DNA of 64,000 bases from Magnetococcales bacterium (GTDB taxonomy: Bacteria; Pseudomonadota; Magnetococcia; Magnetococcales; JADFYX01). Made by a program: the position numbers and the translations under genes. Every line of letters starts with the position of its first letter. The first letter of the stretch is position 1. The stretch lies in assembly GCA_002753565.1 (NCBI GenBank), contig PEAM01000007.1, positions 7,389 to 71,388 of the forward strand, given 5' to 3'. The notes beneath the pieces are model-generated. The model made no database searches. It had not been told where the DNA came from and worked only from the letters and a program-made list of their open reading frames with translations. Shown one piece after another: positions 7,937 through 26,607 of this stretch.

Positions 7937-10222
7937 ATGAGAGAGCGCTTTTTTCACAATATCCTACGCTGGCGATGGCTGGTGGTGCTGCTTCTACTTC
8001 CCCTGGTTGGTACCCTTGCCAGTGGCGCCAAACAGCTGCGGTTTGAGACCGACTACCGAATCTTCTTTTCCGATGATAATCCGCAGATGCTGGCTTTCGA
8101 TAATCTACAAAACACCTATACAAAAAATGATAACGTTCTCTTTGTCTTGGCTCCCAAGGATGGGAAAATTTTCACCTCCAAGATGTTGCGGATCGTAAAA
8201 GATCTGACCAAGGCCTCCTGGCAGATTCCCTACTCTATTCGGGTGGACTCGGTAACCAACTTTCAACATACCCAGGCTGAAGGGGATGATCTGTTGGTCG
8301 CTGATCTGGTGGAAAACCCGGAAAAGCTCACCCCTGCTGAGTTGGAAGCCATCCAAGCCATTGCGCTGGCAGAACCCATGCTGATCAACCGGATCATCTC
8401 TCCGAAAGTCGACGTCACGGGTGTCAACGTAACCATTCAGTTGGCGGGGAAGGATCAGGCAAAAGAGGTTCCTGAAATTGCCGCATTTGTTGAAAAAATG
8501 GCAGAAGAGTTAAGAGCGGCCCACCCCGATCTGGAGGTCTATCTAACCGGCGTAACGATGATGAACAACGCCTTCCCGACGGCAGCCAAACATGATATGA
8601 GCACCCTGGTTCCCATCATGTTTTTGGTGGTGATCATCACATTGGGGTTGATGCTTCGCTCCTTTTCGGCCACCTTTGCGACGGTATTGGTCATCCTTTT
8701 TACCGTAGCAACCACCATGGGGCTTACCGGTTGGTTGGGTATTCCTCTTACTGGCCCCTCCTCATCAGCCCCGACCATTATTCTAACCATGGCGGTCGCC
8801 GACTGTGTTCATATTCTCATCACCTTTCTCTACTATTACCGTCTGAATGGTGGAGAGGATAAGGCGAAAGCCATGATGGAGAGTTTGCGGGTCAACCTCC
8901 ATCCGGTTTTTCTCACCACTCTGACAACGGCTATCGGCTTTTTAAGCATGAACTTTGGCGAAGTCCCCCCCTTCCGGGATCTGGGCAATATGGTGGCCAT
9001 GGGGGTGGGAATCGCCTTTATACTCTCTACCACCCTGCTACCGGCCTTGATGATGATTTTGCCGGTCCACGTCAAAAAAGAGGCCACCCGCACGGGTCAG
9101 AGGATGGAAAAGTTTGGCGAGTTTGTCATCCAAAAAAGAAACATTCTATCCTGGTGCATGGTCTCAGTGGTGGTTATCCTCGCTCTCTTTATTCCGAAGA
9201 ATGAGTTGAATGATGAGTTTGTCAAATATTTCAGCCACAACATTCCGTTCCGGGTGGCCTCGGACTTCTCCAACGAAAGATTGACCGGCATCTATAACAT
9301 CGACTACTCACTGGAGTCTGGAGAGGAGAACGGCGTGGCCTCCCCTGTATTTCTCCAGCATGTTGAAAACTTTGCCCAATGGTATCGAAGCCAGCCGGAG
9401 GTAACTCACGTTAACTCTATTACCGATACCTTCAAACGGCTCAACCGAAATATGCACGGCGATGATAAGGCCTGGTATAAGCTTCCAGAAGCCCAAGATC
9501 TGGCTGCCCAATATCTGCTTCTGTACGAGATGTCCCTCCCGTATGGGCTGGACCTCAACAATCAGATCAACCTGGATAAATCCGCCACCCGGTTTGTGGT
9601 GACCATGGAGAACCTCTCTTCCAATCAGGTTATTGATGTGGCCTCTCGGGCCAGGGCCTGGCAAAAAGCCAATCTACCGGCCTCCATGCAGGTGGAAGGT
9701 TCCAGCCCAACGGTGATGTTTGCCCATATCGGCCAGCGAAACATTCGCAGTATGATTCTGGGCACATCCGGGGCACTGGTTCTCATCTCCCTGATTATGG
9801 TCATCTCCCTTCGCTCCATCAAAATTGGCCTGATCAGTCTGGTTCCCAATCTGGTTCCCATGATCATGGCCTTTGGTTTGTGGGGCATGTTTGTCGGAGA
9901 GGTCGGTCTGGCCCTCTCCATTGTTACCGGCATGACCTTGGGTATTGTTGTGGATGATTCGGTCCACTTTCTGAGCAAATATCTTCGAGCCCGCCGAGAG
10001 AAAGGTTACTCTTCCCAAGATGCGGTCCGCTATGCCTTTTCTACGGTTGGAACCGCCTTATGGGTTACATCGGCTGTTTTGGTCTGTGGCTTTTTTGTGC
10101 TGACCTTCTCCGACTTCCGCCTCAACTCCGGTATGGGCCTGCTCACGGCTATCACCATCTCGTTTGCCTTGATTGCCGACTTTTTACTGTTACCCCCTCT
10201 TCTGATGAAACTGGAGAAATAA
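7937..10222 (+). CDS. RND-superfamily exporter of the MMPL/HpnN-like type
   Basis: 761 aa. Two repeats of a large loop plus a TM bundle, with conserved charged TM motifs MAVADCVHIL and GIVVDDSVHFLSKY. Confidence 0.85.
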   Translation: MRERFFHNILRWRWLVVLLLLPLVGTLASGAKQLRFETDYRIFFSDDNPQMLAFDNLQNTYTKNDNVLFVLAPKDGKIFTSKMLRIVKDLTKASWQIPYSIRVDSVTNFQHTQAEGDDLLVADLVENPEKLTPAELEAIQAIALAEPMLINRIISPKVDVTGVNVTIQLAGKDQAKEVPEIAAFVEKMAEELRAAHPDLEVYLTGVTMMNNAFPTAAKHDMSTLVPIMFLVVIITLGLMLRSFSATFATVLVILFTVATTMGLTGWLGIPLTGPSSSAPTIILTMAVADCVHILITFLYYYRLNGGEDKAKAMMESLRVNLHPVFLTTLTTAIGFLSMNFGEVPPFRDLGNMVAMGVGIAFILSTTLLPALMMILPVHVKKEATRTGQRMEKFGEFVIQKRNILSWCMVSVVVILALFIPKNELNDEFVKYFSHNIPFRVASDFSNERLTGIYNIDYSLESGEENGVASPVFLQHVENFAQWYRSQPEVTHVNSITDTFKRLNRNMHGDDKAWYKLPEAQDLAAQYLLLYEMSLPYGLDLNNQINLDKSATRFVVTMENLSSNQVIDVASRARAWQKANLPASMQVEGSSPTVMFAHIGQRNIRSMILGTSGALVLISLIMVISLRSIKIGLISLVPNLVPMIMAFGLWGMFVGEVGLALSIVTGMTLGIVVDDSVHFLSKYLRARREKGYSSQDAVRYAFSTVGTALWVTSAVLVCGFFVLTFSDFRLNSGMGLLTAITISFALIADFLLLPPLLMKLEK

Positions 10223-15602: not shown

Positions 15603-18269
15603 TTAAAAAATCTCTCTGGCATTTAAAAACAGCCCCATCCGATGGTCGTCGGTGAGGAAATGTTTAACCAGTCTATTTTGGAAATAACGTGAAAACTGGC
15701 CGGAGACCGAGCTGGGCTGGCTGTCATCAATCAAGGTTAACAACGCTTGGGTGGTCTCAATCAGCATCTGATGCTTTTTGACATGGTTAGCCAGCTCCGG
15801 CCCCCCATGTTGATCAAAAAGCTTCTCCTCTGCGGCAAAGCAGTTTTCCATTTTTTCCAGGAAGGCCTGACAGGAGCTTTTTTGGTCACTTTTTTTGGCT
15901 TTTTTTTCTGTCATGACAGCGATAAAGTGACTCGCCATTTCAAACAGTCCTTGATGGTGATCATCAATGCTCTTTACACCAATTCGATAGGTATCCCGCC
16001 ACTGAAAAGCGATGGCGGAGTTAACATCGTGATTAATAATGGAGCGGCGACGTTTCTCTGTTTTTTCAAAAAGTTTCCAGAGAACAATAGGAATATCCCG
16101 CACCAATCTGGTGGGGATTTGATAAATTTCGATATCTCCCTTGGCCTCAACATCATAGGTTTGGGAGCGATCAAACAGAGCCGACTCCTCACCAAAATAG
16201 TCTCTTGGTCCCAATGTCTCGAAGATATTAGTACCCACTTTGCAGATTACCTGACCCGATTTAATCAGGCAGAGGGCGTGCTGATCCTTACCGGCGATGA
16301 TCTCTCCACTACCGAAGCTGGACACTTGAATGGCTTGCGCAATTTCATTCTGTTTCGGATAGGGAATCGCCTCACCAAACAGCTCGGTCTCCTGCAAAAA
16401 GCTGCGTAGTTCGTGGAGAACCTTGATCTGGGTATAGTAGTTGTTCTTTTGGACAAACCCCAGATAGAGCCGTCCAGGAAGCCGAACGGCTCGAACAAAA
16501 CTAGAGGCCCGGAAGGTGACCTGAGAGGCGGTATGATAAAGGCAGGAGATCTCCCCCAGCAAACTACCCGCAGAGAGGATACCGGAGATTCCCCAGTCCC
16601 CCTGAAGAACTTCAACCGTACCGGTTAGCACCAGATAGATATCGGCACTGACCTCCTTCTCCTTGCAGATGATGGTACCGGGATTGAAGGTCACGACCTC
16701 ATTGTTCAACAGACAGCGAAGCTGATTTTGGGAGGACTCCGGAAAATAGGTGCGCATATACTCATAGGCAATAGCAATGGCGGAGTCGCAGTAGTCTGGA
16801 ATCAAGACATCGGTGGTTCCAAAGGAGGCACTGGAGCCGATCTCCCGCTGCTCGGAGCTTAACGCAAACGAGGTGTGGGAGAGGATGATCTTATCGGATT
16901 GGTCGTTGATGAAGTCGACGGTTTCGCCGTGAATCATTCCACCTCCGACATCAATTTTTTTCAGATTGGCGGGCCGATCATATTTTTTTTGGATCTCATC
17001 AAAAAAACGTTGTGAAATACCCTGATCGCTCTCATCCGGAGAGACCATCCCTTTTAAAACCTTGAGGGCGACAATATCGGCATAGTGGGCATACGAGCGA
17101 TAGCCATCCTCTGCCAGAGTGCGAAAGATAAGAATGTTGGTTTCTACCGGATGGGGGGAATAATAGGGCTTAACCTCCAACCCATCGATATCATTCCAAC
17201 TATCCACCTTAAGATCGCGAATATCGAAATAGTGATAGAAATCTTCCTCCTCGATACTCAGAAGAGCAGACAACTTTTTAGCCACCGAGGCCCTCACCAG
17301 AGGGGTTGCAAAATATTTTATCCGATGCCCCGCACGGATCAAGGCGGTAATTCCGGCAAAATGGTCATCGTGGGCATGGGTGTGAAAAATACCTTCAATC
17401 TCACTGATACCAATTCCCAAAGCCTCTAAACTATAGATAAGATTAGGACCGGCATCGATAAGATAGAGGGAGCCCTGATACATGAGAATGCTCGACATAC
17501 AGGGGCGATTTATATCCCATCCATCCCCCTCGCCAGAGTGGATGACACCAAAATATTCACGTTTGATCTGGTACCGACCCAGTGGGTAGGGGGCATCGTA
17601 ACTCTCACCCAGAGCCAGATTAAGGTTGACGGAGACCGTCTCGCCGTCATAACTGATTTCAAAAATATTGAGTCGTATTCGACGGATAGTCACACCTTCT
17701 CGAATCTCTACTACCTCATTTTCCAGGGCAATCGACTCAAGCAGGCTGTCTGAAGGGTGGATGTTACCAAAAGCAAACTTAAGTTTAAGACGCATCATCT
17801 CTACAGCTTCAGGCTCCGACAGACCGGCCTCCATCAACTCCTCCTTGGAGATCAAGCCGTAATTGCCCCGATAGATGTAACGCATCTGGGCCTGAACCTG
17901 TTCTGAAGTACCGATCAGCAGAGGTTTGGCTCCGGTATTGTTGGGGTGGTTGGGGATAATCATCCCCTGGCGATAGAGCATTTGCAGGACGGGAAATTCA
18001 GCCAGGTTGGAAAAATGGCCGTTTTGCAAAAGAACATCAGAGAGTAAAATGGTGTTGGGGCCGGTTTCGAAGGTTGCCCCGTTTTGTTCGGTGCTGATAA
18101 TAAGGCCACGTTTCATCAGGTGTTTAACCGAGTCCGCCGGGCATCCACACAACATATAGAGACCTGCATCGGGGACCTCAATCCAAAAAACACCGTCTAT
18201 AATCTTAATCTTTCTTATTTTTTTCATGCCAGCGACCCCATTTTCTCTTCCCAAACCGCTCCTCATCAA
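15603..18269 (-). CDS. Multidomain protein: unknown N-domain + metallo-beta-lactamase-fold hydrolase + 2x cyclic-nucleotide-binding + hemerythrin-like domain
   Basis: MBL motif FHTHAHDDHFAG (HxHxDH). cNMP beta-roll motifs (GSLLGEISCL...FRASS; DYFGEESALFDRS). Hemerythrin-like tail (FQWRDTYRIGVKSIDDHHQGLFEM, HVKKHQ, VKHFLTDDH). Alternative starts are ATG 18266 or ATG 18227 (MKKIRKIKII...). Confidence 0.85.
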   Translation of the reverse strand: MMRSGLGRENGVAGMKKIRKIKIIDGVFWIEVPDAGLYMLCGCPADSVKHLMKRGLIISTEQNGATFETGPNTILLSDVLLQNGHFSNLAEFPVLQMLYRQGMIIPNHPNNTGAKPLLIGTSEQVQAQMRYIYRGNYGLISKEELMEAGLSEPEAVEMMRLKLKFAFGNIHPSDSLLESIALENEVVEIREGVTIRRIRLNIFEISYDGETVSVNLNLALGESYDAPYPLGRYQIKREYFGVIHSGEGDGWDINRPCMSSILMYQGSLYLIDAGPNLIYSLEALGIGISEIEGIFHTHAHDDHFAGITALIRAGHRIKYFATPLVRASVAKKLSALLSIEEEDFYHYFDIRDLKVDSWNDIDGLEVKPYYSPHPVETNILIFRTLAEDGYRSYAHYADIVALKVLKGMVSPDESDQGISQRFFDEIQKKYDRPANLKKIDVGGGMIHGETVDFINDQSDKIILSHTSFALSSEQREIGSSASFGTTDVLIPDYCDSAIAIAYEYMRTYFPESSQNQLRCLLNNEVVTFNPGTIICKEKEVSADIYLVLTGTVEVLQGDWGISGILSAGSLLGEISCLYHTASQVTFRASSFVRAVRLPGRLYLGFVQKNNYYTQIKVLHELRSFLQETELFGEAIPYPKQNEIAQAIQVSSFGSGEIIAGKDQHALCLIKSGQVICKVGTNIFETLGPRDYFGEESALFDRSQTYDVEAKGDIEIYQIPTRLVRDIPIVLWKLFEKTEKRRRSIINHDVNSAIAFQWRDTYRIGVKSIDDHHQGLFEMASHFIAVMTEKKAKKSDQKSSCQAFLEKMENCFAAEEKLFDQHGGPELANHVKKHQMLIETTQALLTLIDDSQPSSVSGQFSRYFQNRLVKHFLTDDHRMGLFLNAREIF

Positions 18270-20393: not shown

Positions 20394-22055
20394 TTATTGC
20401 TCTGGAATCAGTGTCGTCACAAATCCCTCTCTGGCAAAGCGCTTCTTGAAAGCCCGCTGGGCCTCTTGAGCGTCGGCTTTATCCTTAAAACGTCCCAGAC
20501 GAAGCAGATACCAGGTTTGGTTCTCTTTATCCACACGGGTTTGTGTAAACAGTTCAGCCCCTTTTTCTGCCCACTTGGCCCGAAATTTTTCTGCCCCCTC
20601 CTCACCCCGAAAAGCGGCAACCTGCACTGTCCAACGCGGTTTGACAAAAGAGACCACCGGATGCACAATCCCTGTATCGGTCACTATCGAGGGGGTGGTC
20701 GACTCTTCATGAGAGAGAGGTATGGGCAGCGCGTCAGAGGGGGATATTGGGGAGACCAGTTGAAACCCCTCCCCTTCGGGTGTCAGCTTACCGACCACCT
20801 TCAGGAGTTCAAACAGAGCCAGATTAACGGCAAACTGACTTTTAACCTGCTCGGTCTGAGTAGAAAACAGCTCATTTTGGGCATCGAGAAGATCCAGAGA
20901 GGTGCGTGAACCCACCTCGTACTCCTGGTCAACCCCCTCTTTAGCCTCTTTGGCGGCAGCAACCGCCGTTTTCAAGGCCTCATCAGAGGCTTTGGCACTC
21001 TGATATTTGGAAAGTACCTGCTTCAACTCCCGAACTGCCTTCTCTTGGAGTAGGTCCAGACCCGCCCGGCTGGCACTCTCATCCGACTGCGCCTGTTGAG
21101 TCTGTGCCGTTGTCAAACCACCGGAATAGAGAGGAAGGGAGGCCGAAACCGAAAGAGAGAAGCTATCCACCGGCCCCACCACAGAAGAGGAGGCCGGGTC
21201 CCAGGTTCGTGAACCGCTGGAGCTAAGAGAGAGGGTGGGATAGTGTCCGGCTTTTTTGGCCTGGACCCGAAAGGAGTCTGCCTCCAATCGATAGCGGGCC
21301 GCCTGGATATCGGGTCGGTTCTGGGCCAGAGGGGTCAGGATTGCCAGAGAGGCGTTGGGCAGCTGGCTTTGGACCAGAGGAACCTGCAGCCCTTCCGGCA
21401 CAGCTATTCCGGCTATCTCTTGAAATTGCGCCTCATTCACCTTGCCCTCTCCCACACGACGAATCCAATCGGCCTCGGCGGTTGCCACCCGTGCTCTGGC
21501 CTGGCTGACATCGGTTTTTGTCACCTCTCCAACAGAAAAACGGGCTTTGGTTGCCTCCAGATGGCGTTTGGTCACATCCAGATTGTTCTTGGCCAGAAGA
21601 GCCACTTCTCGCGCCTCCAACAAGGCTGTAGAAATCTGAATCAAGGAGAAATAGACCCCCTGACGAGCCGCTTCCAGATCCTGCTCAAAGGCCATGACCA
21701 ACGGCTCAACCCGTCTCATCTCCTCGAAGGCCTGCTGGTTGAATAGGGGCTGGCTTAAAGAGAGGCTCATGGTGGTGGGGTCATAATCTGAATTCCCCCC
21801 CTTCCATCGGCTCTCCTCGTAGGAGGAGCTCCAACCTAGAGAGAGGGTAGGCAGTATGGCGGATCGAGCTTGAGGGTAGAGGGTCAGAGCGGAGTCCAGG
21901 CGAGCCTGGGCCTGCTTGATCTGACCATTGGAAGCCAGGGCCTCTTGAACCGAACGAAAAAACGGCGATAAGGGTTTCTCAACCGCCCCCCCCTCTCCTG
22001 ATAGGGCAAACAGTCCCACCACCCCCGCAATTGTCAATAAGCCAGATCTATTCAT
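20394..22055 (-). CDS. TolC-family outer-membrane efflux factor with a C-terminal SPOR (peptidoglycan-binding) domain
   Basis: Signal peptide MNRSGLLTIAGVVGLFALS (ATG 22055; the track ORF starts at 22115). Two OEP-type repeats. The last ~75 aa, WTVQVAAFRGEEGAEKFRAKW...WYLLRLGRFKDKADAQEAQRAFKKRF, match the SPOR pattern. Confidence 0.85.
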   Translation of the reverse strand: MNRSGLLTIAGVVGLFALSGEGGAVEKPLSPFFRSVQEALASNGQIKQAQARLDSALTLYPQARSAILPTLSLGWSSSYEESRWKGGNSDYDPTTMSLSLSQPLFNQQAFEEMRRVEPLVMAFEQDLEAARQGVYFSLIQISTALLEAREVALLAKNNLDVTKRHLEATKARFSVGEVTKTDVSQARARVATAEADWIRRVGEGKVNEAQFQEIAGIAVPEGLQVPLVQSQLPNASLAILTPLAQNRPDIQAARYRLEADSFRVQAKKAGHYPTLSLSSSGSRTWDPASSSVVGPVDSFSLSVSASLPLYSGGLTTAQTQQAQSDESASRAGLDLLQEKAVRELKQVLSKYQSAKASDEALKTAVAAAKEAKEGVDQEYEVGSRTSLDLLDAQNELFSTQTEQVKSQFAVNLALFELLKVVGKLTPEGEGFQLVSPISPSDALPIPLSHEESTTPSIVTDTGIVHPVVSFVKPRWTVQVAAFRGEEGAEKFRAKWAEKGAELFTQTRVDKENQTWYLLRLGRFKDKADAQEAQRAFKKRFAREGFVTTLIPEQ

Positions 22056-22183: not shown

Positions 22184-25100
22184 TCACCCTTTGCTTGGGT
22201 TCAGCAGGCTTTTTTTCCACAGGAAAAAGGCTGGAGGAATGACCAGCAGAACAAAAAGAGCCGTGGAGACCAAACCACCCAACAGAGGTGTAACCAGACC
22301 ATGCAAAATTCGGACCTCTCCACCACCATTAATCAAAACAGGCAGCAGACTAACCAGCAGGGCAGACAGTACACTCAGGATGGGACGCAGGGAGAGCAGC
22401 GCCCCTTCAACCACCCCATGCCGTAAATCACCGAGGGTGATGGTCCGATCTTCACGCAGAGCCAGAGCTTGACTCTTAGCCAGATTATCTTCAAGGAGCG
22501 TCATCATCAGCCCCCCCATCCCTACCGCCATGGCAGAGAGGATAATCAGACCTACCCCAACGGCAACCGACAGGGGCATCGTCAAAAAATAGAGCAGCCA
22601 AACCGCTCCCACCAAAGCTACCGGCAGGGTAGACACAATAATGAGAAATGATTGAAAAGGGCGAAAACCAAGAGAGACAAAAAGCAAGATAATCACCAGG
22701 GCAACAGGAGCAATCAGGGTAAAACGCTCTTTGGCCCGCTGCAAATACTCCGAGTGGCCCGACCAGGACAGGGTGTATCCATCGGGCAGAATCACCCCTC
22801 GACTCACTGCCTGTTGAGCCTCTGCCACAAAAGAGCCGATATCCCGCCCTTTAACATCAATGGTGATCCAACCGTTCATGCGGGCATTTTCGCTCTTGAT
22901 CATGGGTGGCCCATCCGTCACCCGGATGGTGGTCACATCCTGCAGACTGATCTGAGAACCGCCGGGGGTCACGATGGAGAGGTTTTTCAACTGTTCAACA
23001 GAGTCGTGGACATTTTTGGGATAGCGGATGTTGATGGGGTATCGCTCCATCCCCTCCAACGTGTACGCAACCGTCATACCGCCGATTGCCGTACGAACAA
23101 TTTCGTGGACACCGGCAATATTCAGACCAAATCCCGCTGCTGCCAACCGGTCAACATCAACCGTAATATAGCGTCCGCCCACCACCCGCTCAGCAAAGAT
23201 GGAGCCTGTTCCCGGCAGGGTTCGAATGATCTTTTCAATTTCGGCACCAATCAGTTGAATAACCTCCAGATCGACCCCGGAAATTTTAATCCCTACCGGT
23301 GTCCTGATACCAGTAGCCACCTGATCAACCCGAGTTTGGATGGGCATGACCCAGCCATTGGCAATACCCGGCAGTTTGACGGTTTGATCCAACGCTGCCC
23401 GAATCTCCTCCATCCCCATACCGGCCCGCCATTCATGACGGGGTTTAAGCTGAATAATCGACTCCATCAACGCAAGGGAAGAGGAGTCGGTAGCCGATGC
23501 CGTTCTTCCAACCTTGCCAAACACCTGTTTGACCTCCGGCACCGAACGAATCATCTCATTGGTCTGTTGCAAAATCTGCTGGGCTTTTCCCATGGAGATG
23601 CCCGGAAAAGTGGTCGGGACATACATCAAATCCCCTTCATCGGTCTCGGGCATAAACTGAGAACCAAGATGATGGAGCGGAAAAAAAGCCAGTCCAACAC
23701 TTACCAGAGATAGAATCAACACAACCTGGGGAGAGCGGGTCAGAAAGGTGAGCGTTGGTCGAAAAAACCGCTTCAGGGTCCCGTTGATCGGGTGGCTCTC
23801 CTCCGACAACACCGATCCTTTGACCAGATAGCCGGTCAAAACAGGCACCAACGTGAGGGTAAACAGCACAGCCAGCCCCAGAACCGTGGTTTGGGTAAGG
23901 ATGAACGGGGTAAAATATTTCCCTTCCTGGGCCTCCAAAAGCAGAAGCGGAAGCGAGGCGACCAGTACAAGAAGCAGGATAAACAACAGGATTGGCGCTA
24001 CCTTACCCAGGGTCTGCTCCAACATCAGCCAGTGAGCCTGAGCATCCATTCTCTCTGGGTCTCTGTTGGTGTGGGACTCCAAATGGCGATGAAAAGAGGC
24101 GGTCATCACCAGGGACGAAAGCCCTGCCATGCCAACAGAGAGCAACAGGCCACCCACCGATAGAGTATCGGCGGTGATTCCGGTCAATCTCATGAGCAAA
24201 AAGGTGGCTAGAAAGGTGGTCAGCAGCGTCATGGCAACCACCAGGGCCGAGGAAAAATGGAGCAACAAAAGAAAACTGATCACCGCCACCAACAGAGCCG
24301 ACTCCAGCAGGTCCAACTTTAAGGTAGAGAGCACCCGCCCGATCAAGTCGGAACGATCATAGGTTGTCACCACCTCTACCCCTTCCGGCAGCCCCTTTTG
24401 CAACGACTGCAACTTTTGCTTCACCCCTTCGATGGTGTTCAAGCTGTTCTCGCCATGGCGCATGACGATGAGTCCTCCCACCACCTCACCCAAACCGTCC
24501 AGCTCAGCCACACCCCGGCGCATCTGTGGACCAATACGCAACTCGGCAATATCGCTCAGCAGAATAGGAATTCCCTTATCGCTCAACCCCAAAGGGATAT
24601 GGCTGATATCATCCAGGTTTTTCAAATTGCCCGTGGCCCGCACCATATATTCCGCTTCGGCCATATCCACCACAGAGCCACCAATCTCCTGGTTGGCGTT
24701 GCGGATGGCCTCTTTAACTTTTGCCAACGGCATGTTGTAGGCCCGCATTTTAACCGGGTCCAAGATCACCTGATACTGCCGGACCATCCCCCCCACTGTC
24801 ACCACCTCTGAAACACCTGGAACAGTCTGCAACTCAAACTTTAAAAACCAATCCTGCATGGAGCGTAACTGGGAGAGATCATACTGACCGCTGCGGTCCA
24901 CCAAGGCATACTGAAACACCCAACCAACCCCGGTCGCATCGGGTCCCAACGTCGGATGAACCTCTGCTGGAAGACGGCTGGAGAGCTGGCTCAGGTATTC
25001 CAACACACGGGATCGTGCCCAATAGGGGTCTGTTCCATCGGCGAAGGTAATATAAACATAGGAGCTGCCAAAAAAGGAGTACCCTCGGACCGTCAAGGCA

Positions 25101-25333
25101 GATGGGACCGACAGCATCACCGTCGTCAGGGGATAGGTAACCTGATCCTCCACAACCTGGGGAGCCTGACCGGGGTAGTCGGTTTTAATGATAACCTGTA
25201 CGTCGGAAAGATCGGGAAGGGCCTCGACAGGCAGGGATCTGACGGCATAAAACCCGGCAAGTACCACAACAGCCGCCAGCAGAAGAATGGTCAGCCGATT
25301 AAGGATAGACCAACGAATAACAGCTTGAATCAT
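22184..25333 (-). CDS. CusA/CzcA-like (HME-type) RND inner-membrane transporter, atypical TM residues
   Basis: 1049 aa. Near-colinear with E. coli CusA as recalled (ALPDLSDVQVIIKTDYPGQAPQ, GPDATGVGW, EAEYMVRATG, RYPINIRYP). 4-nt overlap with the adaptor gene. Confidence 0.9.
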   Translation of the reverse strand: MIQAVIRWSILNRLTILLLAAVVVLAGFYAVRSLPVEALPDLSDVQVIIKTDYPGQAPQVVEDQVTYPLTTVMLSVPSALTVRGYSFFGSSYVYITFADGTDPYWARSRVLEYLSQLSSRLPAEVHPTLGPDATGVGWVFQYALVDRSGQYDLSQLRSMQDWFLKFELQTVPGVSEVVTVGGMVRQYQVILDPVKMRAYNMPLAKVKEAIRNANQEIGGSVVDMAEAEYMVRATGNLKNLDDISHIPLGLSDKGIPILLSDIAELRIGPQMRRGVAELDGLGEVVGGLIVMRHGENSLNTIEGVKQKLQSLQKGLPEGVEVVTTYDRSDLIGRVLSTLKLDLLESALLVAVISFLLLLHFSSALVVAMTLLTTFLATFLLMRLTGITADTLSVGGLLLSVGMAGLSSLVMTASFHRHLESHTNRDPERMDAQAHWLMLEQTLGKVAPILLFILLLVLVASLPLLLLEAQEGKYFTPFILTQTTVLGLAVLFTLTLVPVLTGYLVKGSVLSEESHPINGTLKRFFRPTLTFLTRSPQVVLILSLVSVGLAFFPLHHLGSQFMPETDEGDLMYVPTTFPGISMGKAQQILQQTNEMIRSVPEVKQVFGKVGRTASATDSSSLALMESIIQLKPRHEWRAGMGMEEIRAALDQTVKLPGIANGWVMPIQTRVDQVATGIRTPVGIKISGVDLEVIQLIGAEIEKIIRTLPGTGSIFAERVVGGRYITVDVDRLAAAGFGLNIAGVHEIVRTAIGGMTVAYTLEGMERYPINIRYPKNVHDSVEQLKNLSIVTPGGSQISLQDVTTIRVTDGPPMIKSENARMNGWITIDVKGRDIGSFVAEAQQAVSRGVILPDGYTLSWSGHSEYLQRAKERFTLIAPVALVIILLFVSLGFRPFQSFLIIVSTLPVALVGAVWLLYFLTMPLSVAVGVGLIILSAMAVGMGGLMMTLLEDNLAKSQALALREDRTITLGDLRHGVVEGALLSLRPILSVLSALLVSLLPVLINGGGEVRILHGLVTPLLGGLVSTALFVLLVIPPAFFLWKKSLLNPSKG

Positions 25334-26607
25334 GGCTCATCTCTATGGGAAACCGCTTTGGCCTTGGTCACATGGTAGTTAGAATAGTCACCACGGATCT
25401 CTGCTGCATGCAGGCCACCGCTTAAACTGGCTTGGGAGTCGATGAGAAACTGGGCAGAGGTGACCACTTTTTCACCCTTTTCCAGCCCAGAAAGCACCTC
25501 AACCAAGCCATCGCTCTCCATACCGACACGAATGGTTCTGGCTTTAAAGCGCCCCTCTCCCAAGGCCAAAATCGTTCGTTCCCCTTTTCCGCTGCGGATA
25601 ACCGCCTCTCTTGGAATAGCCAGTACACCCTCTTTTGGCTCGCCAAAAATGGAGACTTTGGCATACATGTTGGGCTTCATCCGCTCATCAGGGTTTTCAA
25701 AACGAAGCCGCACCTTGAGGGTGCGGGTTTTGGGGGTAAGAGAGGGGTAGATATAGTCCACCCGGCCCTGCCAGGTGGTACCGGGAAGGTAGGAGAGATG
25801 GGCCTGGGCATCGGCACCCGGAACCACCCAGTCGGCTTGGCGTTCAAACACCTCTGTCTGAAGCCAGACATGGGAGAGATCGGCCAGACTCATTATGGTC
25901 ATGTTAGCCGAGACACGAATACCCTGCCGGACCAACAGCTCACTGACTATACCGTCTTGAGGGGCATAAAAAGCGACCCGGAGATAGACCCGGTTCATCT
26001 TCCGCACCCGCTCTATCTGATGTCGGTTCAGCCCCAACGATTGCAACCGAAGCTCTGCAGCACGGATCAACTGCTTGTTGCGGGTGGAGATGGCTTGCAA
26101 AAACTCCTCCTGGGCCTTGACCAGGGCGGGAGAGTAGAACTCGAACAGCAACTGTCCTTTTTTAACCCGCTCCCCCTCTGCTTGAACAGCCAGCCGCTCA
26201 ATCCAACCATCGGCCTTCAGTTGAATGTGGCTGATCTGGGTTTCGTCGAAGGAGATATATCCCACCGTATCGATACGTCTTTTCAGGTCATGGGCTTTAA
26301 CTGTGGCGGTACGAACCCCCAAATGGTTGACCATCGATGCCGAGATGGTCACATCGGCCTCAGCCAATTTTTCGTCTGGTTGCTTGTCAGACCGGCTAGA
26401 GGCCAGCAAAAGATTGGGATCTTGAGGATCGACTCGCTGAGAACCCTCCATGCCCGGTTCAGCTGACCCCATACCAGGGGTTGAGAGCGGTTGAAGTGCG
26501 TGATCCATTGTCGGTAGAAGGGATTCTGGAATGACACCCTGTCCAACCAACCAACCTCCCACTACAATTCCACCAATCAGCACTATGGTTCCTGAAACAA
26601 TCTTCAT
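25330..26607 (-). CDS. RND efflux periplasmic adaptor (CusB/CzcB-like membrane fusion protein)
   Basis: ATG at 26607 preceded by GGGGAGAGG; the track ORF extends to 26664. N-terminal anchor IVLIGGIVVGGWLVG and an MFP-type lipoyl/hairpin/barrel pattern. Confidence 0.85.
   Translation of the reverse strand: MKIVSGTIVLIGGIVVGGWLVGQGVIPESLLPTMDHALQPLSTPGMGSAEPGMEGSQRVDPQDPNLLLASSRSDKQPDEKLAEADVTISASMVNHLGVRTATVKAHDLKRRIDTVGYISFDETQISHIQLKADGWIERLAVQAEGERVKKGQLLFEFYSPALVKAQEEFLQAISTRNKQLIRAAELRLQSLGLNRHQIERVRKMNRVYLRVAFYAPQDGIVSELLVRQGIRVSANMTIMSLADLSHVWLQTEVFERQADWVVPGADAQAHLSYLPGTTWQGRVDYIYPSLTPKTRTLKVRLRFENPDERMKPNMYAKVSIFGEPKEGVLAIPREAVIRSGKGERTILALGEGRFKARTIRVGMESDGLVEVLSGLEKGEKVVTSAQFLIDSQASLSGGLHAAEIRGDYSNYHVTKAKAVSHRDEP

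Follow-up and report, generated by a model that had tools for sequence, protein, structure and literature searches.

Pumps that belong to the resistance-nodulation-division (RND) superfamily are regarded as obligate proton-driven machines, and the aspartate in the fourth of their transmembrane helices (TM4) is among their most conserved features. In Escherichia coli CusA, a D405/E939/K984 proton relay and a network of methionines are needed for transport, which single mutations abolish (PMC8092243). In the adaptor CusB, methionines M49, M64, M66, and M227 have metal-handling roles (PMC6715271). Relay-dead MtrD still forms a stable tripartite complex (PMC3664412). Here, we describe a CusA-like RND pump and its CusB-like periplasmic adaptor, encoded in a 64,000-nucleotide stretch (the window) of contig PEAM01000007.1 (assembly GCA_002753565.1) from a metagenome-assembled genome (MAG) of an uncultured magnetotactic bacterium of the Magnetococcales. 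The pump lacks both the proton relay and the metal-binding methionines, the adaptor lacks its N-terminal metal-binding site, and, judging from these sequences, the two proteins probably no longer move copper or silver.

The assignment of the pump to its family is clear. It aligned from end to end with the E. coli CusA chains in the Protein Data Bank (PDB; 3k07/3t51; 1039 bits with phmmer) and scored 983.8 bits against the NCBIfam CusA/CzcA model TIGR00914 (cutoff, 701 bits). An identical protein (P0001), with a precomputed PF00873 match, is on record in the NCBI MAG GCA_015232915.1 (contig JADFYR010000008.1, 139 kb). An AlphaFold2 model of the pump (pLDDT, 69; pTM, 0.58) contained twelve membrane helices, and its best Foldseek matches were CusA (TM-score, 0.74); the predicted fold is thus CusA-like. 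The CusA residue numbering used in the original prediction for this stretch, made by eye, was right, given that the K-12 genome record has D405, E939, K984, M573, M623, and M672, and the quoted runs of identity to CusA are present in the alignment. The alignment is not gapless, as had been stated, but contains two small loop indels, and the pump numbering is offset by 1 past residue ~424.

Alignments made with phmmer and with MAFFT gave the same replacements in the pump. At the relay positions, D405 is L405 and E939 is G938; K482 and T987, which belong with them, are replaced by Gln and Val, and I985 occupies the K984 column. The three-methionine metal site (M573, M623, and M672) reads V572, L622, and Q671, with one Met moved to position 624. 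The absence of D405, E939, and the three methionines that was first noticed by eye is therefore borne out in computed alignments, neither of which placed Asp or Glu and the three methionines at the canonical positions. The CusA-type TM4 signature GAMVDAAIVMIEN, consisting of the essential Asp and a terminal (V/I)EN, is destroyed; the pump reads GMAGLSSLVMTAS, with E412 replaced by Ala and N413 by Ser. Five transmembrane methionines were also replaced (M403 by Ala, M486 by Leu, M501 by Thr, M391 by Leu, and M1009 by Leu), so that only M410 is retained from the pairs M410-M501, M403-M486, and M391-M1009. Across 119 close homologs, all of these additional columns show no variation or almost none. 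Of the nine relay methionines that are invariant in the family, eight are thus gone in total, with M410 as the sole survivor.

The periplasmic cleft around the former metal site was altered as well. Its loop was remodeled from TDPAPLTMIETT to TDSSSLALMESI and is now Ser rich. The charged residues of the cleft (R83, E567, D617, E625, and R669) were kept, and the replacement of K678 by Arg is conservative. No new His, Cys, Asp, or Glu ligand was gained in the cleft, and no ionizable residue is left in the cores of TM4, TM9, and TM10.

The E939 column and those of the three-methionine site are conserved in 118 to 119 of the 119 closest homologs (119/119 for the three methionines), and D405 is present in 118 of them. 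In a HMMER scan of 1.84 billion representative sequences, D405 was found in 148 of the 150 best matches to the TM2-TM7 half of the pump; the two exceptions were a frameshifted fragment (P0390) and a sequence aligned to a gap. Among 80 species-representative genomes, D405 was present in all 80 and E939 in 79. No other degenerate relative was found among the top 120 pump matches, the 150 representative matches, or the 80 genome loci, and the substitutions of the pump are accordingly shared by no relative in these sets.

The K984 column differs from the others. The original prediction had counted it as a third relay loss, and the pump does have Ile there, but this is not a specific loss, since Ile or Val occupies the column in 119/119 close homologs and in nearly every CusA from outside the enteric bacteria. 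Lys at this E. coli "proton sweeper" column (pump Ile985, positions 22379-22381) was found in only 2 of the 80 species-representative genomes. E. coli CusA is the exception, and Ile/Val is the family norm. The relay model derived from E. coli CusA may not generalize at K984; D405 and E939 are essentially universal.

The adaptor has degenerated together with the pump. Its start codon is preceded by a Shine-Dalgarno sequence, and its stop codon overlaps the start codon of the pump (ATGA). It has the body of a membrane fusion protein, matches PF16576 with 260 bits, and has CusB-specific domain families on record; it is 66% identical to a canonical relative (P0122), with 75% identity to a canonical relative in the body domains. 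The N-terminal metal-binding segment is a different matter. The family motif WVAPMDPNYRRDKPGxSPMGMDLIPVY is reduced to RVDPQDPN followed by a deletion of ~14 residues. M49 of CusB is replaced by Gln; of the pair equivalent to M64 and M66, the first has become Leu and the second lies within the deletion. The equivalents of M227 and M398 are also replaced. No HMBD Pfam match was detected in the adaptor, whereas nearly all of its 119 relatives have HMBD, and the fused CusF domain carried by many of these relatives is missing. In total, the adaptor lost 32 conserved positions, half of which lie within the N-terminal motif. If the criteria from mutational work on E. coli CusA and CusB are applied, the losses in the two proteins would permit neither proton-driven cycling nor methionine-mediated transfer of Cu or Ag.

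The losses are unevenly distributed over the pump. We considered columns in which 95% or more of the family agree and used 120 other family sequences for comparison. The pump kept 300 of 333 such columns (90%) in the periplasmic domains and only 115 of 227 (51%) in the membrane domain (Fisher P = 1e-25), whereas the other 120 sequences keep ~99% in both; its ratio of membrane to periplasmic retention is 8.6 standard deviations from the family mean (z = -8.6). The better conservation of the porter and docking parts that had been read from the sequence by eye is thereby quantified. Rates of nonsynonymous substitution (dN) told the same story. Measured from the nearest canonical gene (P0003), the pump gene has a dN of 0.54 over its membrane domain and of 0.15 over its periplasmic domains, compared with 0.14 to 0.22 and 0.10 to 0.12, respectively, between canonical genes. 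Synonymous divergence (dS) was saturated (>1.5), and we therefore used dN contrasts and simulation instead of omega (the dN/dS ratio) for the pump branch; canonical cus genes have an omega of ~0.02 to 0.04 at a dS of ~1. The GC content and the third-codon-position GC content (GC3) are equal in both pump domains and near the window average. The membrane domain of the pump is under strongly relaxed, sequence-specific constraint.

As a yardstick for the periplasmic parts, we took the syntenic housekeeping proteins that this MAG shares with GCA_015232405.1, which are 54 to 77% identical. Relative to the canonical proteins of GCA_015232405.1, identity was 83% for one periplasmic half of the pump, 66% for the other, and 75% for the adaptor body, while the membrane halves showed 39 to 44%. 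The periplasmic halves and the adaptor body, having housekeeping-like identities, thus evolved like ordinary functional orthologs. The near-invariant positions that the periplasmic domains did lose (33 positions) are concentrated in segments 570-576, 610-628, and 665-680, which build the metal site (12 of 34 positions, versus 21 of 299 elsewhere; P = 1.5e-5).

The membrane helices changed in a nonneutral manner. All twelve are at least as hydrophobic as the family consensus, and their composition is unusual, as the original prediction had remarked: they are Leu/Ser/Thr rich, and they are also poor in Ile and Met. Leu makes up 28% of their residues, compared with 16 to 18% in canonical relatives, and the proportions of Ile and Met are halved; Ser and Thr are enriched in TM3, TM4, and TM11. 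Gly and Pro columns of the membrane domain were kept at 32 of 40 positions, against 83 of 187 for other residue classes (P = 4e-5). To simulate neutral drift, we let nucleotides in the P0003 helix codons be substituted without constraint until the amino acid divergence reached 0.57 (1000 runs). Mean hydropathy fell to 0.96 +/- 0.14 in the simulated helices (observed, 1.98), and charged residues rose from 17 at the start to 36 (observed, 8). Of 35 Gly/Pro residues, 15.5 were kept (observed, 25), and none of the 1000 runs remained free of stop codons, as the observed gene is. Because the simulation never matched the observed helices, we infer that selection kept an intact, uncharged helical anchor while the transport machinery was no longer constrained.

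Several other sources of the divergent helices were examined. Compensating frameshifts were ruled out by tblastn comparison with three relatives, in which one frame ran from end to end. Genome-wide composition accounts for the Leu-rich helices only in part, given that the other membrane segments of the window contain 22% Leu and 10.5% Ile, versus 28% and 5.4% in the pump. A second RND-superfamily protein in the window (positions 7937-10222, plus strand; 761 amino acids; MMPL/sterol-sensing type) served as a composition control, and its membrane segments are ordinary (Leu, 19.5%; Ile, 10.5%). A foreign donor of the membrane domain was rejected after a phmmer search of 1.84 billion representatives: nothing was more than 38% identical to TM2-TM7, and the real matches, at best 31 to 38% identical, were all canonical. 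Ser increased by ~20 residues over the family consensus in the periplasmic and the membrane domains each (through A-to-S, P-to-S, and T-to-S changes). This trend looks compositional, and relaxation of the membrane domain alone does not account for it.

The genomic context of the pair also departs from that of canonical relatives, which sit in clusters with cusRS, cusF, and OMF-adaptor-pump genes (OMF, outer membrane factor); all adaptor relatives found belong to canonical cus operons. The original prediction of an intact adaptor-RND-OMF operon is not supported, as the adaptor has neither the methionine site nor the HMBD motif and the OMF, a TolC-family protein that ends in a C-terminal SPOR domain, belongs to the housekeeping genes. 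The stop codon of the pump is separated from tolC-SPOR by a 128-bp spacer. Orthologs of tolC-SPOR occupy the same locus in two sister MAGs, flanked by moxR-DUF58-DUF4381 on one side and by cobT/cobC and a metallo-beta-lactamase-cyclic-nucleotide-binding gene on the other, with no adaptor or pump upstream. Since the sister genomes have the same locus without the pair, it was in this lineage that the cusBA-derived pair was inserted, upstream of a channel gene with a housekeeping role. At the level of tblastn, the window OMF showed no relationship to the CusC-type channels that canonical operons encode; it is the housekeeping gene of the locus and not a dedicated CusC. No remnant of cusC, cusF, or cusRS was detected in the window by tblastn, and the locus does not qualify as a dedicated CusCBA operon. 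Intergenic DNA was too diverged to be aligned for definition of the insertion junctions. The coordinates of the features are given in Table 1.

Table 1. Positions in the window of the pump, adaptor, and channel genes and of the altered sites
Feature	Position	Strand	Remarks
CusA-like RND pump	22184..25333	minus	1049-aa open reading frame (ORF)
TM4 (aa 393-414), VGGLLLSVGMAGLSSLVMTASF	24092..24157	minus	D405->L at 24119-24121; E412->A, N413->S, M403->A
TM10 (aa 923-948)	22490..22567	minus	Gly938 = E939 equivalent, codon 22520-22522
TM11 (aa 975-1001)	22331..22411	minus	T987 equivalent = Val988; Ile985 in K984 column; Arg983 kept
Val572 codon, CusA M573 position of three-methionine site	23618..23620	minus	
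Gln671 codon, CusA M672 position of three-methionine site	23321..23323	minus	
Periplasmic cleft strand/loop, TASATDSSSLALMESI (family: AETATDPAPLTMIETT)	23456..23503	minus	M623->L, Met displaced by one position; D617 and E625 retained
CusB-family periplasmic adaptor	25330..26607	minus	425 aa from ATG 26607; longest ORF extends to 26664
Degenerate N-terminal metal-binding segment of adaptor, RVDPQDPNLLLASS	26365..26457	minus	
TolC-family OMF with C-terminal SPOR domain	20394..22055	minus	553 aa; SPOR about 20421-20636

Some further observations concern the locus and its relatives. The fusion of TolC with SPOR, a peptidoglycan-binding domain, occurs in at least six other Magnetococcales-type sequences (58 to 61% identity, syntenic locus), and no description of it turned up in a literature search. 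In the sister genome GCA_015232865.1, a fragment of IS66 TnpB lies just upstream of tolC-SPOR (L007:9123-9305). Its presence at the same junction as the cusBA pair suggests that the moxR/tolC-SPOR junction is insertion prone. GCA_015232405.1 carries two complete canonical cusF-OMF-adaptor-pump operons (L003 and L089), the pumps of which are 94.6% identical (dS, ~1; dN, ~0.03); these represent either a duplication or strain mixing in the bin. A large protein with metallo-beta-lactamase, two cyclic-nucleotide-binding, and hemerythrin domains is encoded at positions 15603-18269 (minus strand); across the three syntenic Magnetococcales loci, it is conserved beside an SBP_bac_3 gene.

On balance, we lean toward the view that the pump and adaptor form a Cus module that is dead as a catalyst but has been retained because its periplasmic parts serve a nonpumping function, with the membrane domain as an anchor. 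A cusBA pair, closest to the cus operons of Magnetococcales, entered between the moxR operon and tolC-SPOR, arriving without cusC, cusF, and cusRS. The pump lost the relay and the metal-relay methionines, and the adaptor lost its N-terminal methionine site and HMBD motif. The membrane domain would most likely serve only as an anchor or folding platform, while the periplasmic trimer and the adaptor may still assemble as a static, noncycling complex. Such a complex is plausible by analogy with relay-dead RND pumps made in the laboratory, which still assemble. As candidate roles, the complex might tether the envelope, plug or regulate an outer membrane channel, or offer a binding platform in the periplasm. 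More tentatively, the de-energized RND-adaptor pair may have been co-opted (exapted) to build a static structure in the periplasm or across the envelope, with the RND membrane domain reduced to an anchor; it could act as a tether or could plug or regulate an outer membrane channel (e.g., the adjacent TolC-SPOR). This proposal is possible but doubtful. If it is true, the pair would be the first RND-class "pseudo-transporter" with a nontransport function. No description of a natural RND pump without a proton relay, or of a dead RND paralog, was found in the literature, although our searches were not exhaustive.

Several points weigh against a retained dead module. The gene is carried by one MAG contig only, with no second lineage. 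Saturation of dS yields no omega for the pump branch and is compatible with a recent full loss of function. About 10% of the near-invariant positions, both periplasmic ones in the pump and those of the adaptor body, were changed (1 to 3% in relatives), which shows some relaxation everywhere, concentrated around the former metal cleft. The hairpin by which the adaptor contacts the outer membrane resembles those of CusC-pairing relatives, yet the neighboring OMF is of the TolC type, so that a tripartite assembly with TolC-SPOR is only putative. There is no positive evidence for a specific new role of the pair.

An alternative is that the pair is a decaying relic, a redundant or useless cusBA copy that lacks a regulator, chaperone, and cognate channel and is heading for loss. 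Periplasmic conservation would then be no more than a matter of elapsed time, or of selection acting against misfolded products that are toxic. A relic would explain why all function-specific residue sets are gone from both proteins and why no cusC, cusF, or cusRS is nearby, and the duplicated cus operons of a related genome indicate that spare copies exist. The ~10-fold-faster loss of near-invariant periplasmic positions than in relatives, and the status of the pump as a singleton with no ortholog found in the same state, fit as well. We nevertheless consider a relic unlikely. Over 3.1 and 1.3 kb, there is no stop codon, frameshift, or helix indel despite a 57% amino acid change in the helices, whereas no simulated run stayed free of stops. 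Helix charges were purged and hydropathy rose, which is not the course of decay. On the same branch, periplasmic dN is 4-fold below membrane dN, with periplasmic identity equal to that of housekeeping orthologs, and the start/stop overlap and the Shine-Dalgarno sequence are intact.

It is less likely still that the pump is an active transporter of a new substrate that uses unconventional coupling or a passive mechanism, for example, downhill exit of a solute via the porter domain and an outer membrane channel, or coupling via Ser/Thr-lined helices or the retained Arg983. The charged network of the cleft (R83, E567, D617, E625, R669, and K678R) was kept while the Met ligands were replaced and the loop became Ser rich, Ser and Thr are enriched in TM3, TM4, and TM11, and the periplasmic domains are under purifying selection, all of which count in favor of such a transporter. 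However, the TM4 Asp is near universal (148/150 matches; 80/80 genomes) and has no acidic replacement anywhere in the helix cores. The membrane domain displays Leu-rich drift of a generic kind, with no newly conserved motif, and lacks relatives on which conservation could be judged. The Ser gain is equal in the periplasm (+20 in both), and the cleft gained no His, Cys, Asp, or Glu. With no ionizable residue in the TM4, TM9, and TM10 cores and no new metal ligand in the cleft, a pump with a new coupling mechanism does not fit the sequence. Of the options offered in the original prediction, a nonpumping scaffold and relaxed constraint (in the membrane domain) are those that fit, while a different coupling mechanism does not; a simple decaying pseudogene does not fit either.

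An assembly, binning, or sequencing artifact, or a chimera with a membrane domain from another RND family, is very improbable, for although one MAG and one contig carry the gene, it has a single reading frame from end to end, its changes are codon level and hydrophobicity preserving rather than error-like, the two pump domains do not differ in GC or GC3 and lie near the window average, the 139-kb contig has conserved synteny on both sides, and none of the sequences searched exceeds 38% identity to the TM2-TM7 half, which leaves no donor.

If the pair is expressed, the periplasmic architecture of an RND pump and its adaptor would be useful without transport, and the complex would offer a natural "locked" form for assembly studies. 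The case also cautions that metal resistance should not be annotated from family membership alone.

Among known systems, one of the closest is E. coli CusA, the heavy-metal efflux RND pump for Cu(I)/Ag(I) of the CusCFBA system (PDB 3K07 and 3NE5). The window pump shares its architecture of twelve helices and porter and docking domains and is likewise encoded directly after a CusB-type adaptor with a start/stop overlap. It differs in having no D405, E939, K482, T987, EN motif, or M573/M623/M672 and in lacking five of the six transmembrane methionines. Its membrane domain is only ~40% identical to those of close relatives, no cusC, cusF, or cusRS lies nearby, and the metal site of the adaptor is gone. 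The closest relatives are the canonical cus operons of Magnetococcales (P0003/P0004/P0007/P0008; L003-L006 and L089), with 57 to 60% identity for the pump and 61 to 73% for the adaptor; the periplasmic N-terminal half of the pump is 83% identical to theirs, and the adaptor body is 75% identical. In these operons, the adaptors have HMBD (often with a fused CusF), and all relay and methionine residues are kept. In engineered relay mutants (CusA D405A/E939A/K984A; MtrD, Janganan et al. 2013), transport is abolished and tripartite interactions persist, and the window pump may behave in the same way. Those mutants carry single laboratory substitutions in native proteins, whereas the loss in the window pump is natural and multisite. 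Unlike them, the window pump also shows wholesale turnover of the membrane domain, loss of substrate ligands, and apparent retention by selection. The window pump, a singleton, resembles pseudoenzyme-type dead paralogs, in which catalytic residues are lost while the fold and interaction surfaces are conserved.

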